From an uncultured Mycoplasmatota bacterium (GTDB lineage: Bacteria; Bacillota_I; Bacilli_A; RF39; UBA660): a stretch of 64,000 bases of DNA. Below, piece by piece: positions 20,396 to 24,544 of the stretch. The stretch covers positions 58,899 to 122,898 of the forward strand of contig CAMNRN010000001.1 in the NCBI GenBank assembly GCA_946553095.1, read 5' to 3'. Each line of letters starts with the position of its first letter. Positions within the stretch are counted from its first letter, which is position 1. The notes under the pieces are model-generated. The model saw nothing but the letters and a program-made list of their open reading frames with translations. It was not told the DNA's origin and ran no database searches. The position numbers and the translations under genes were made by a program.

Positions 20396-23300
20396 ATGAC
20401 AAATTATTATAAAGATAATAAAAAACATCAAGAAGAAAAAGATCACAGCACTAGAAATAGAATAATAATGGTTATCATACTTATAATAATAATTCTTCTT
20501 TTGATAACAAGTTGTAGCTGCACATCAAAATTTTGGGGCAAAATTGGCGACTGGTTCAAAGGAGAAGGAAATTATACTGTAGAACCTGGAACTAATGATC
20601 CAGAACAGATAACTAATCAAGAACTTAAATTTGACAAAGATTTTTTAGAATTATCATTAAGTGATATAAATGCCAAATTAGGATTTTCGTACAAGAATAT
20701 AAGTCCTAATGAATTTGCATGTACAACAAGTGATGCTGATATAGCAACTTGTTATGTGGTAGACGACTATGTTGTAATTAATCCCAAAGCAGTTGGAGAG
20801 GTAATTGTTACTTTAAAAGCATTGACAAATGGGAAAACATATGAAGCGACAGCAAAGGTTCAAATTAATGATGCAACAAGATATATTTCTTTATCAAGTA
20901 AAAAAGGAACAATTAATTTAGCATACGGAAATAAAAAGACAATAACATATAAACTAGTAGGTTTAACAGGAGAAGTAAAAGTATCAACAAGCGACAAATC
21001 AATTGCTACAGCAACCGTGGAAAACGGAATAATAAAGATTACAGGTCATAAAGTTGGTACAGCAGAAATAACTGTATCCATTGATTATAATGGTAAGACT
21101 TACACAGAAATATACAAAATTAAAGTAATTGATAGTAAAAATGATCCAAACTATGGTGTTGGTGATGACATTGAAGATGATAAATTAGATAGTGATTCAT
21201 CACTAAAGAGTCTAACAACAAACAAAGGGACATTAAATTTTGATCCAAATACGTTGACATATTATGTTGGTGTAAGTGGTTGGACATGGAATATCACATT
21301 AAAAGCTGAAGCTAAGAGTCCTAAAGCGACAATAACTTATACATTTAATGGTGAAACCGTTGACGATTTAAATAAATTAAAATTAAAAACTGGCGATAAT
21401 GTTGTGACAATTACAGTAACTGCCGAAGACGGAAGTAAAACAACATATACAGTAATTATTAATAAAGCAAAATCAAGTAATGATTACTTAAAGAATATAA
21501 CAACAAACAAGGGAACATTAAGTCCTAAGTTTAATAAAAATACACTAGATTATAAAATAGATGTTGATTATAAAACAAGTATAATAGATTTAGAAGCGAT
21601 ACCAAAAAGTAAAAAAGCCACATTAACATACACATTTAATGGTGTAACAGTAGATGACTTAAGCAAATTAAATCTATTAACAGGACCAAACGTTGTCAAA
21701 ATTACAGTTACAGCTGAAGATGGTTCGACAAGAACATACAGAGTAGTCATCAATAAAGCTCAAGCTCCAGGTGTAATCGATAACAACAGTCGTTTATCAT
21801 CACTAACTGATTCTCTAGGAAAAATAGATTTTGATCCATTTGTTACAGATTATAATATTGGTGTTTCTAGCGATACAGATAGAATAACATTAAATGCCAT
21901 TCCAAGTAGTGATAAAGCAACAGTTAAATATACTTATAATGGTAAAACAGTAACGGATTTAAATGATTTAGAATTAGCACCTGGTGACAATAAAGTCGTA
22001 ATAACAGTTATTGCTGAAGATGGTAGTAAAACAACATATACAGTAAATATTAACAAAGCAACTGAAACTGGAAGTACTTCATTATCAAATTTAGAAGTAT
22101 TAGGAAATGCTGGTAAATTAAAACCAAACTTTAATGAAGATACTTTAAACTATGAAATAAATGTAGACAAAGATGTCGATAAAATAAGTTTAAGAGCAAC
22201 ACCAAAAGATACAGGTTCAAAATTAACTTATACATTCAATGGCCAAACAGTAGATTCTCTAAAAGATTTAGAGCTTCAAGATGGACCAAACAGAGTTGTA
22301 ATAACAGTAACAGATAAAGATGGATTAACTAGAGATTACACTGTTGTTATAAATAAGGAATCAAATAAGAATACAGATGTTTCCTTAAAAGACTTGACAG
22401 TTGATGGTGAATCTATTATAGATACATTCCAAACAACAGTAGATTCTAACAAGAATCAAATAACAATTGTTGCTACACCAAATGATCCAAATGCTAAAGT
22501 ATCATATATCTACAATGGTGTAGAATATAAAGACGTTAATGAATTAAAAATGGATTTAAAAACCGGACCTAATGTTGTTCAAGTAGTAGTAACAGCAGAA
22601 GACGGAATTACCAAAAAACATTATGAAGCGATAATCACTAAAGAAGCTGCTAATAATGTTGGTGTAGAAATAAAAATTGATGGAACTATTATAGATGCTC
22701 CATATGAAATAAATGTTGATTCTGAAACAGATAGTGTTAAACTATCAGCTATACCAGTAGATAAAAATGCTAAAATTATTTACAATGGAAAAGAATACAA
22801 TAGTTTAGAAGATATAGTTGTAGATGTACCAAACTTTGGTGAAAATAAAGTAAGCTTTACAGTTGTAGCTGAAGATGGCACAGAAGAAGAATATACTATA
22901 ACAATTAATAAAAAAGCACCAGTGTATGAAATAAAAATCAAAGAAAATGAAGTTTATTATCTAGAAGATTACACACCAGATGCTCCATATTATATAAAGT
23001 ATGATTTATATAAAGATGGAAAACTGACAAATGAAGATATTAATGCTAGTGATATTAGCATAGATAATGCTTCAGTTGAAATAGTAAAAATAGATGGTGA
23101 AAATTTAATCAAAGTAACACCAAATAAAGATGTTAAAGCTGGCGATAAAGCCACAGTAACAATAAAATATCAAGGAACAACAGCTGAATGTGAAGTAAAA
23201 TTCGATATTCATGATTATACTCTAAATATAGATCCAAAAGAATATGATTTAAATTATTCAAGTGAAGGTGGAAATTCTAAAGATGATATTAAAACCTTTA

Positions 23301-24544
23301 TTGTTGGAACTAAGAATTTATTCACAGGTGATGTAAATGTAACTTTATCAAAAGATAAATCAGAATTAACAATTTGTTCTAAAGATAAGAATACATGTAT
23401 TAACGTCGTAGTTCCAGAAGAATATAGAAATTATGTAGAAATAGAATATACTGGTGAATTAACATCACCATCATCATTGCCAATTAAAGTGGTAGCTAAA
23501 GAAAATGCCATTATAAAAGATAATATTGATAATATAAAAATAGATGTTACAGGAACAGTATATGGAAAAACGATCAAAACTGATGACGATTTAGAAAAAG
23601 GCACAATTGATATCAACTTAATTAGAAATTATGTAGTTACTATTGATGCTAACGAAGGTATCTTCGGCAAAGATGAGCTTAACAAGGATGTTGTTGAAAT
23701 CAAACGTTTCGTAAAATCTGGAACAAACTTAAACTTAAATGATGTTCTTGATCAAAATCCGATGAAAGAAGTAGATTGTTTATACTACAAATTCCTAGGC
23801 TTTAGTACAAACCCTCAAGGTGATGAGTCAGATATAGAATATACTATTGATAGCATCATAGAAAATATTACAGCTGATATGAAAATCTATGCGATATATT
23901 CTGATGAAGCCACTGATGAGAATGAAGATCCAATTGTAAATTGGTTAAACTTAAATGAAATTCCATTATTCAAAAATCCAGAAGGACAAACACTTCATGG
24001 ATCAAAATATGAAAATCTCATTTATCCAGGAGCAACCGGATCTTATAAAATCAATTTAAAAAATGACAGTGAATACGATATAGTAATTAACAAAATAATG
24101 TTAAAAGAAGAAACCATTTGTGTCGATACAGATGGTGACGGAAAAAATGATGGCTGTTTAAATATGGGTTATATTTTTAAAGCTGATCCAGATGTCACAA
24201 ACATAAATAGTAACCAAGTATATTACTATGGATCATCTGCTCCAAGTTATGACATTCTAAATCAAAATGCAACAAGCAAAAATTGGGATACAATGATCAA
24301 CAAAAAAGAAGTTGACATGGAAAACATAAATGGTAAAGATGAATCTATTAAAGTACCAGCTGGAGGTACATTAGAAATGGGACTTCTATGGAAATGGGTC
24401 GAAGAAAACGATACATTAGATACTAAAGTAGGAAACTATGCTGCTACAACAACTGATACAAATATAAACAACTTATATAAATTAACGATTAGATTAGGTT
24501 TCTACTTTGAAAATGACGATGTTTGTCAAATAGAAGAGCCATAA
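20396..24544 (+). CDS. giant membrane-anchored surface adhesin: Big_2 Ig-like domain(s) + 6 tandem cadherin-like beta-sandwich domains + C-terminal domains (1382 aa)
   Basis: N-terminal signal-anchor TM (IIMVIILIIIILLLI). Big_2-like segment at aa ~100-245. Six ~95-aa repeats (aa 270-840) with the pattern L..L....G.L.P.F......Y...V........A.P......Y..NG..V.....L.L..G.N.V.ITV.AEDG....Y.V.INK, typical of the Firmicute cadherin-like domain (PF12733). RBS GGGGAGGAG. Confidence 0.8.
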   Translation: MTNYYKDNKKHQEEKDHSTRNRIIMVIILIIIILLLITSCSCTSKFWGKIGDWFKGEGNYTVEPGTNDPEQITNQELKFDKDFLELSLSDINAKLGFSYKNISPNEFACTTSDADIATCYVVDDYVVINPKAVGEVIVTLKALTNGKTYEATAKVQINDATRYISLSSKKGTINLAYGNKKTITYKLVGLTGEVKVSTSDKSIATATVENGIIKITGHKVGTAEITVSIDYNGKTYTEIYKIKVIDSKNDPNYGVGDDIEDDKLDSDSSLKSLTTNKGTLNFDPNTLTYYVGVSGWTWNITLKAEAKSPKATITYTFNGETVDDLNKLKLKTGDNVVTITVTAEDGSKTTYTVIINKAKSSNDYLKNITTNKGTLSPKFNKNTLDYKIDVDYKTSIIDLEAIPKSKKATLTYTFNGVTVDDLSKLNLLTGPNVVKITVTAEDGSTRTYRVVINKAQAPGVIDNNSRLSSLTDSLGKIDFDPFVTDYNIGVSSDTDRITLNAIPSSDKATVKYTYNGKTVTDLNDLELAPGDNKVVITVIAEDGSKTTYTVNINKATETGSTSLSNLEVLGNAGKLKPNFNEDTLNYEINVDKDVDKISLRATPKDTGSKLTYTFNGQTVDSLKDLELQDGPNRVVITVTDKDGLTRDYTVVINKESNKNTDVSLKDLTVDGESIIDTFQTTVDSNKNQITIVATPNDPNAKVSYIYNGVEYKDVNELKMDLKTGPNVVQVVVTAEDGITKKHYEAIITKEAANNVGVEIKIDGTIIDAPYEINVDSETDSVKLSAIPVDKNAKIIYNGKEYNSLEDIVVDVPNFGENKVSFTVVAEDGTEEEYTITINKKAPVYEIKIKENEVYYLEDYTPDAPYYIKYDLYKDGKLTNEDINASDISIDNASVEIVKIDGENLIKVTPNKDVKAGDKATVTIKYQGTTAECEVKFDIHDYTLNIDPKEYDLNYSSEGGNSKDDIKTFIVGTKNLFTGDVNVTLSKDKSELTICSKDKNTCINVVVPEEYRNYVEIEYTGELTSPSSLPIKVVAKENAIIKDNIDNIKIDVTGTVYGKTIKTDDDLEKGTIDINLIRNYVVTIDANEGIFGKDELNKDVVEIKRFVKSGTNLNLNDVLDQNPMKEVDCLYYKFLGFSTNPQGDESDIEYTIDSIIENITADMKIYAIYSDEATDENEDPIVNWLNLNEIPLFKNPEGQTLHGSKYENLIYPGATGSYKINLKNDSEYDIVINKIMLKEETICVDTDGDGKNDGCLNMGYIFKADPDVTNINSNQVYYYGSSAPSYDILNQNATSKNWDTMINKKEVDMENINGKDESIKVPAGGTLEMGLLWKWVEENDTLDTKVGNYAATTTDTNINNLYKLTIRLGFYFENDDVCQIEEP
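21203..22915 (+). repeat. six tandem ~285-bp cadherin-like domain repeats (protein-level periodicity) within the adhesin gene
   Basis: Each copy ends in the motif T.AEDG..T.Y.V.INK. Copies are diverged at the DNA level. Confidence 0.7.

Follow-up and report, generated by a model that had tools for sequence, protein, structure and literature searches.

A large, probably membrane-tethered protein that ends in a domain related to a putative fibre subunit is a fixed member of a two-SipW gene cassette in uncultured Bacilli

We analyzed a 64,000-nucleotide stretch of DNA (the window) from an uncultured Mycoplasmatota bacterium (GenBank assembly GCA_946553095.1, contig CAMNRN010000001.1, positions 58,899 to 122,898). 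The analysis centred on the open reading frame (ORF) at 20396–24544, the product of which we call BIG. A previous inspection of the sequence alone (the original prediction) had described BIG as an adhesin. The BIG gene stands fourth in a row of seven with the same orientation (16375–28080), in the order X, SipW-1, pA, BIG, SipW-2, pB, C; these genes, their parts and the two intergenic elements described below are all given on the forward strand. The C-terminal domain of BIG (BigC) is, by profile comparison, homologous to the body of pA, a putative fibre subunit encoded by the adjoining upstream gene, and it is because of this relationship that we read BIG as the stalk of a fibre. With about even confidence, we propose that the seven genes form an operon for a SipW-dependent surface-fibre system, in which BIG serves as the large subunit tethered to the membrane.

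BigC comprises residues ~1178–1382 of BIG (23927–24544) and contains ..IYPGATGSYKINL.., a loop bounded by C1242 and C1254, the motifs GCLNMGY, ..LLWKWV.. and ..DTLDTKVGN.., the last strand YKLTIRLGFYF, and a further cysteine, C1377. When the last ~215–225 residues of BIG homologues were compared with pA homologues by hhalign, the two families aligned over 117 columns with a probability of 94.8 % (E 5e-8); a second run gave 93 % (E 3.5e-7). The two share a series of landmarks in the same order: DLF..(K)VVAPGTxGxY in pA and D(V)xLF..KxIYPGAxGSY in BIG, IxWxW and LLWKWV, (L)DTxAG and LDTxIGN, and finally a helix and the last strand. The secondary-structure elements also follow each other in the same order in AlphaFold2 (AF2) models of pA and of the BIG fragment. 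One part of pA has no counterpart in BIG, namely the segment KY..(D/E)ARVAKW that comes directly after the signal. The motif A[RK]VA[KR][WF] was present in 45 of 54 pA and 30 of 60 pB proteins and in none of 58 BIG homologues, and by this measure BIG carries a subunit-like body from which the N-terminal strand is missing. The loop between the invariant C1242 and C1254 (24119–24157) reads VDTDGDGKNDG in the window and resembles a DxDxDG calcium-binding loop; most BIG homologues have only 3–4 residues there, and a similar insert is found in locus L064 and partly in P0009.

Judging by their N-termini, three proteins of the cassette, pA, pB and C, look like SipW substrates. The N-termini of pA (19444–20292; 282 residues, with the real start at ATG 19444) consist, across loci, of a hydrophobic region (h-region) and a signal end ..YSVSGTYA, followed by KYTSSxDxxDEARVAKW..; in the window, ..YSVSGTYA is followed by KYTSSIDITDEARVAKW. 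In pB (25254–25805; 183 residues), which has a long basic n-region, the signal ends in ..TTVITYS and the family continues with KYISSxxxxDxARVAKF.., represented in the window by KYISSFGVSDEARSTKF and a small Cys-containing body. In C (25816–28080; 754 residues), the family has an h-region, then ..[ST]x[SA] and [KR][YF]....AL.Y, the signal ending in [ST]x[SA][KR][YF]; the large body of C, which matched no family, ends in an acidic tail. Over their N-terminal regions pA and pB are related (BLASTP E 2e-5; hhalign probability 94.3 %), and C aligns weakly to both in the signal region only (E 1e-3 and 5e-3). Of the 22 invariant columns in an alignment of 72 pA sequences, 10 fall within the first 44 residues, as do 8 of the 13 nearly invariant ones, and the conservation extends ~17 residues past the predicted cleavage site. 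This is more than a peptidase site needs, which suggests that the new N-terminus of pA has a function of its own.

The body of pA is beta-rich (..VVAPGTKGSYEF.., ..ISWEW.., ..DILDT.., ..KITANQ), and its AF2 model has a mean predicted local distance difference test score (pLDDT) of 74, with residues 1–40 disordered. The family is large, with 5817 representatives (at 50 % identity) at E<=1e-3 and 3766 at E<=1e-10; a protein identical to pA over 100 % of residues, P0017, is present in public assemblies. Neither cluster look-up nor scans of the 72 relatives gave a consistent Pfam or NCBIfam family or a source name, and a tblastn search of PLSDB plasmids with pA returned no match. By way of insertions, pA varies from ~200 to 420 residues in length, as expected of a surface-exposed major subunit under diversifying pressure. 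The gene is tandemly duplicated in loci L012, L025 and L029, with two copies each (234, 381 and 377 residues).

The cassette is conserved and BIG is a fixed member of it. A pattern scan that covered each species by one genome yielded 66 loci, all in uncultured metagenome-assembled genomes (MAGs) with record labels such as Tenericutes, Bacilli, Mollicutes, Mycoplasma sp. and Erysipelotrichaceae, and a few labelled Clostridia or Muribaculaceae; isolate names suggest mouse, rabbit and ruminant samples. Wherever the contig was long enough, the gene order X, SipW, pA, BIG, SipW, pB, C was the same, in ~60 species-level MAGs, and pB kept its position in 60 loci. The flanks vary. In the window, the cassette sits between a ribosomal-protein/rpoA operon (rpoA/rplQ at 13796–16375) and parA-parB (28148–29855), whereas priA/ftsK flank it in L001 and a glycosyltransferase cluster lies downstream in L002–L004. 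Since the neighbours differ between genomes, the seven genes appear to move as a unit.

The original prediction had placed a SipW gene next to BIG, and there are in fact two. SipW-1 (18505–19320; 271 residues) is an archaeal/endoplasmic reticulum-type signal peptidase I with the motifs SGSME, THRI and GDAN; it matched TIGR02228 at 89.5 bits (cut-off 51.85 bits) and the SipW model NF046067 at E 3.3e-29. SipW-2 (24523–25242; 239 residues, with the likely start at ATG 24556, 11 nucleotides past the BIG stop codon) has SGSMEP, THRI and GDNN and matched TIGR02228 at 92.7 bits as well as PF00717, PF10502 and the SipW model. The catalytic motifs SGSME, THRI and GD(A/N)N are thus kept in both. In both paralogues a second transmembrane segment is followed by a 60–90-residue Lys/Thr/Ser/Glu-rich tail (Lys/Thr/Ser-rich in SipW-1, Lys-rich in SipW-2). 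The two formed separate clades in 37 of 37 loci, with identities of 66 % and 50 % within the clades and 31 % between them. The duplication is therefore old, and the two peptidases are probably specialised.

BIG itself is a chain of ~12 beta-sandwich domains: two Ig-like (immunoglobulin-like), six cadherin-like, three unclassified and one pA-like. The ORF runs exactly as originally predicted, from an ATG preceded by a strong ribosome-binding site, GGGGAGGAG, and encodes 1382 residues. The six predicted tandem cadherin-like domains are also there, at residues 268–839 (21197–22912): PF12733 matched in six stretches with 231.9 bits (cut-off 24.2) and E 7.5e-70, bounded at residues 268–357, 363–455, 466–555, 561–654, 661–749 and 752–839, and the motif said to end each repeat was seen in each of the six, for example as ITVTAEDGSKTTYTVIINK. 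The repeats are 30–64 % identical pairwise as protein and 47–67 % as DNA, and Tandem Repeats Finder detected no long-period array among them; they are therefore diverged, and the view of the array as an old one stands. The Big_2-like domains expected upstream of it held up in part. Residues ~60–260 (20573–21175) form two Ig-like domains with conserved C109 and C119; Big_2 (PF02368) scored 17.3 bits on BIG itself, under the cut-off of 22.8, and was matched in the equivalent region by nine of 16 aligned homologues, with a best E of 7e-9.

Downstream of the repeats, residues 841 to ~1177 (22916–23926) fold into three predicted all-beta domains with pLDDT mostly 75–95, a region kept in all homologues of the 16-sequence alignment used here for residue and domain conservation. 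The original prediction had left the C-terminal ~540 residues to a domain scan. No Pfam or NCBIfam model matched the last 542 residues, and AF2 modelled them as all-beta domains with a mean pLDDT of 80. A Foldseek search of this model against the PDB gave only generic tandem-Ig matches (titin, PAD4, S-layer domains) and was uninformative on the last domain. When the same 542 residues were searched against an index of 5.8 billion proteins, only 16 relatives were found, the best at 39 % identity, all of the same architecture with fewer cadherin-like domains. Across the loci, BIG homologues measure 630–1540 residues, the number of cadherin-like copies varies from 0 to 6 or more, and the N-terminus and the C-terminal domain are the best-conserved parts. 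Such retention of both ends around a variable middle is more in keeping with a spacer than with an array that binds ligands.

This pattern bears on the first of the alternatives, according to which BIG is a free-standing lipoprotein or type II adhesin that binds ligands of host or microbial origin by its cadherin-like and Ig domains, its pA-like domain is one more binding or structural module, and the co-location with SipW reflects co-regulation. Cadherin-like and Big_2 domains are indeed typical of adhesins, and in the AF2 monomer the strand just before the C-terminal domain folds together with it. However, the gene order is strict in ~60 species, the homology is specific to the body encoded by the adjoining gene rather than to a generic fold, and the supposedly adhesive repeats, at 0 to 6+ copies between the two best-conserved ends, behave as a spacer. 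We consider a free-standing adhesin unlikely. Of the original adhesin description, a large surface protein with six cadherin-like domains after Ig domains, with no sortase anchor and with SipW adjacent, is retained; the homology to pA and the cassette had been missed.

How BIG is held at the cell surface depends on its N-terminus. Residues 1–40 (20396–20515) comprise a charged n-region, MTNYYKDNKKHQEEKDHSTRNR, an Ile/Leu-rich h-region and a lipobox-like LITSC40. This is the sole hydrophobic segment of the protein (~residues 17–48, from 19-residue windows starting at residues 17–30). BIG has no LPXTG-like motif (pattern [LNSI]PX[TSA][GANS]) and no C-terminal hydrophobic segment, the C-terminus reading ..NDDVCQIEEP, and on both counts it agrees with the original prediction. 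The lack of LPXTG cannot be put down to a wall-less organism. Absent peptidoglycan is not the cause, as genes for three FemAB proteins, a MurJ-like flippase, and LysM/G5- and PcsB-type M23 hydrolases are present in the window. At 45809–51222, the three FemAB paralogues (407, 419 and 420 residues) flank the MurJ/Polysacc_synt-type flippase gene. By its gene content this is a peptidoglycan cross-bridge synthesis cluster, which shows that the organism has a wall, even though related MAGs are labelled "Tenericutes".

The hydrophobic segment of BIG closes in L-I-T-S-C40, which matches the PROSITE-type lipobox pattern [LVI][ASTVI][GAS]C. The 16-sequence alignment shows no variation at L34, L36, T38 and C40 (..LLLITSC), and nearly all of ~58 homologues have L[IL]TSC; among 38 N-termini that could be parsed, 36 have Cys and two have Gly at this position. 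Across the family, the Cys is consistently preceded by 16–18 uncharged residues, a length typical of a cleavable signal rather than of a helix anchor. Other ORFs of these loci, often including gene X, have the classical lipoboxes LTGC, FTGC, LSGC or VVGC, from which it is evident that lipoproteins are made in this lineage. A conventional anchor independent of SipW, which the original prediction had named as evidence against its own view, is thus plausibly provided by the lipobox and not by any sortase motif. Directly after the Cys, residues 41–56 (20516–20563) form a juxtamembrane motif, SCTSKFWGKIGDWFKG, with the family consensus xFFGKIGDLF. G48 and G51 are invariant and I50 and F54 nearly so, which makes the motif as conserved as the lipobox.

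The original prediction, which reported no conventional anchor, had offered a type II membrane anchor. As an uncleaved signal-anchor with its tail in the cytoplasm and the Ile/Leu helix in the membrane, BIG could play the same role at the base of a fibre, only without lipidation. Its n-region is long and of mixed charge (22 residues, up to 45 in homologues, with a median of four acidic residues), the Cys lies past the usual position limit of 35, and the two homologues with Gly in place of Cys keep everything else. Against this, an uncharged stretch of 16–18 residues that includes the polar T-S-C is short for a stable transmembrane helix, and Lgt/Lsp recognition offers the best explanation of the near-universal L[IL]TSC. 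Because of the long and partly acidic n-region the type II anchor stays under consideration, but we regard it as improbable.

The other suggestion of the original prediction, an unusual signal cleaved by SipW, is the weaker one. SipW-2 would cut BIG after ..SCTS and release a protein in which the new N-terminus, (K)FWGKIGDWF, serves as a strand; BIG would then be a tip adhesin carried by the fibre, or a head-to-tail polymer joined through its C-terminal pA-like domain. The 11-nucleotide distance between the BIG stop codon and the SipW-2 start would fit this, as would the small residues before K/N-F-[FW], which could satisfy the -3/-1 rule, the strong conservation of the motif after the Cys, and the two SipW clades, which could mean two classes of substrate. 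However, when compared by hhalign with the signals of pA, pB and C, the BIG N-terminus gave probabilities of only 3.8 %, 0.5 % and 1.6 %. In pA, pB and C, a K/R almost always precedes the aromatic residue, but BIG varies at this position, and the invariant Cys in its lipobox context would be left unexplained. TIGR04088, the model of the SipW-cognate signal, matched none of BIG, pA, pB or C at E<=0.1. We conclude that BIG is an improbable SipW substrate, and that, since its lipobox is conserved and its signal is unlike the neighbouring class, lipoprotein anchoring is more likely than an uncleaved type II anchor, which in turn is more likely than SipW cleavage. By either of the first two routes, BIG would be tethered N-terminally with the rest of the chain outside.

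Put together, these features suggest the following course of assembly for the proposed fibre. The proteins pA, pB and C would be exported and trimmed by SipW-1 and SipW-2 after [ST]-x-[AS], exposing the conserved N-terminal strand on each. pA would then polymerise by inserting its strand into the next subunit, in the manner of TasA and BsaA. BIG would be held in the membrane by a lipidated Cys40 or by an uncleaved anchor, and its Ig/cadherin-like stalk would cross the wall, the number of cadherin-like copies setting its length; on typical Ig-domain sizes, the chain would measure tens of nanometres. At the far end, the pA-like domain would accept or pair with the strand of pA as a strand-less terminal subunit, so that BIG would form the base tying the fibre to the cell. 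pB and C, which have the strand but no pA-like body, would for this reason be minor or terminal (tip) subunits.

Several points weigh against this proposal. Architecture, conservation and the homology between BigC and pA rest on computed results, and polymerisation, cleavage and lipidation are steps that we infer. BIG may occupy either end of the fibre, base or tip. In the AF2 monomer, the pA-like domain of BIG pairs in cis with a short upstream strand (..VNWLNLN..), so that the domain may complement itself and offer no open acceptor. The N-terminus departs from the usual description of a lipoprotein signal, a short basic n-region with the Cys within ~35 residues: the n-region of BIG has 22 residues, five of them acidic (up to 45 residues and a median of four acidic ones in homologues), and the Cys is at position 40 (family median 37, maximum 63). 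The BIG homologues of L025 and L029 read ..LITSG.. and yet keep the FFGRIG motif, so the putative lipidated Cys is dispensable in at least those lineages. None of the explanations considered here accounts for xFFGKIGDLF after the Cys. Finally, the link to TasA finds no support in sequence comparison. Against a 42-sequence TasA/CalY alignment, pA gave an hhalign probability of 0.4 % (E 0.14), with only v.ItAtQ aligned to FeATQ, and BigC gave 0.1 % against TasA; neither PF12389 nor TIGR04088 matched BIG or pA.

The remaining features of the cassette are its first gene and two intergenic elements. Gene X (16375–18492; 705 residues) encodes a protein whose signal ends in ..GGVKAC, followed by a low-complexity region rich in Asn, Lys, Pro and Glu and then by Cys/His-rich repeats; it matched no family. 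There are at least three near-identical modules of ~60 residues (HEHDYTKE..YTCSNEDGKCD..CGYEDGVCQTCGH) and more CxxC pairs, and the modules resemble zinc-ribbon-type units borne by an exported protein. The gene that takes this place in other loci varies greatly, encodes ~370–1250 residues and often carries a lipobox, FTGC, LSGC or LTGC. Upstream of gene X, at a distance of 66 nucleotides, lies a promoter-like TTGACA-16-TATAAT (16282–16309; 12 of 12 matches). It is the sole perfect match in 15500–28400, and since the total number of sites in that region is at chance level, it is suggestive only. Between pA and BIG there is an 18-base-pair hairpin (20325–20363). The 106-nucleotide spacer has a folding energy of -29.5 kcal/mol (z-score -4.56), and none of 200 shuffled sequences was as stable. 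The stem is perfect over its 18 pairs, with no clean T-run after it, and the hairpin, as an attenuator or a stabiliser, may keep the pA:BIG ratio high.

Two observations elsewhere in the window concern other genes. At 55492–56148, a 218-residue protein matched DUF285 ("Mycoplasma protein of unknown function"; E 7.7e-38) and BspA-type leucine-rich repeats; a longer ORF upstream of it may be truncated or split. At 35371–37857, two adjoining ORFs (442 and 378 residues) had no Pfam match at E<=1e-3, and the second resembles, by eye, a multi-pass membrane protein.

If the proposal holds, the common and unannotated family of pA would be the shaft of a fibre in uncultured, reduced-genome gut Bacilli, and BIG would offer a concrete anchoring route for sortase-independent fibres. 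For annotation, proteins that end in GCLNMGY...WKWV...DT.IGN and are encoded between two sipW genes would be listed as fibre-operon components and not as "cadherin-like adhesins". More tentatively, we suggest that the cassette may stand for an undescribed class of Gram-positive fibre, with a pA shaft heteropolymerised with pB and C, two SipW peptidases, and a lipoprotein base with a C-terminal cap and a variable stalk. Our literature search found no description of this cassette, including in Erysipelotrichia or RF39-type bacteria.

Compared with Firmicute surface proteins of the PF12733 kind, BIG is similar in having six bona fide PF12733 domains. It differs in that these repeats vary in number and serve as a spacer, with a conserved membrane-proximal module on one side and a conserved subunit-like domain on the other.

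Fold comparison gives pA a weak match to TasA. When the pA model was compared by Foldseek with 350,542 PDB chains, the best match was 8aur_A, the TasA fibre (E 3e-3, probability 0.89, template-modelling score 0.25–0.28), followed by the FimA and PapG pilin domains of chaperone-usher pili. Weak as it is, the match to 8aur_A had been predicted beforehand from the gene context. Against PDB sequences, the pA profile matched only an endolysin, at E 0.053, which we take as chance. PF12389 had no match in the 72 pA relatives, and TIGR04088 matched one of them, at E 0.21. The TasA query, which was confirmed to be identical in sequence to 8aur_A, was run both as a single sequence and as the 42-sequence profile, and neither gave a significant alignment with pA or BigC. 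With no sequence match to the TasA models, we reject membership of pA or BIG in the TasA/camelysin (PF12389, Peptidase_M73) family. A way of working similar to that of TasA is nevertheless suggested for pA by gene context, signal type and the weak fold match.

In the tapA-sipW-tasA system of Bacillus subtilis (PDB 8aur; PMC9674648, PMC10151520), a dedicated SipW is likewise encoded beside small secreted beta-rich subunits and an accessory linking or nucleating protein. In both TasA and pA, the conserved sequence starts right after the signal peptide: G-T-W-A followed by A-F-N-D in TasA parallels G-T-Y-A followed by K-Y-T-S in pA, and the last strand closes with ..ATQ in both. The cassette differs from this system in its two SipW clades, its three substrate-like proteins and a lipobox protein of 630–1540 residues with a subunit-like domain. 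TapA is not known to have such an architecture.

The sipW-bsaA-bsaB-bsaC operon of Clostridium perfringens (PMC11580942; PMC7395162) resembles the cassette in combining a SipW, several TasA-like paralogues and a large extra protein. TasA and BsaA donor-strand fibres are encoded with SipW, and heteropolymers have been suggested (PMC11580942; PMC9674648); the superfamily is extremely divergent, its members lie beside signal peptidases, and an operon can hold several paralogues (PMC11580942). A subunit gene adjacent to a SipW-type peptidase gene is what we find in ~60 loci, with two such peptidases. For BsaA, donor-strand exchange has been modelled, and its oligomers are attached to the membrane by an unknown mechanism, not to peptidoglycan, and without LPXTG (PMC11580942); an anchor such as BIG would be of the kind required there. 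The large protein of that operon, BsaC, is a von Willebrand factor A protein secreted via type IV pilus genes, and no lipobox stalk with a subunit-like domain is described there. An isopeptide triad (N-E-K) like that of BsaA could not be mapped onto pA or BIG; the invariant E106 of pA has no conserved counterpart in BIG.

Beyond the SipW-dependent systems, the likeness is one of logic. In the type V pili of Bacteroidia, the FimA/Mfa1 shaft subunits are released by proteolysis and joined by strand exchange, and the fibre is anchored in the membrane by the lipid-bearing FimB/Mfa2; these pili belong to a diderm outer membrane, depend on a gingipain protease, and every subunit begins as a lipoprotein. 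The shared principle is that a pilin-fold lipoprotein anchors the fibre, and we claim no homology; on our proposal, BIG would make the cassette a monoderm analogue of this lipoprotein-anchored pilus. The tip adhesins FimH and PapG also combine an N-terminal functional part with a C-terminal, strand-accepting pilin domain that has no donor extension, but they sit at the distal tip and have no membrane anchor. Unlike these adhesins, BIG carries a membrane tether at its N-terminus, and this speaks for a place at the base. Within the SipW/TasA-BsaA kind of system, the cassette appears new in three respects: two SipW clades, a distinct signal and strand motif, and a giant lipobox protein that ends in a subunit-like domain.

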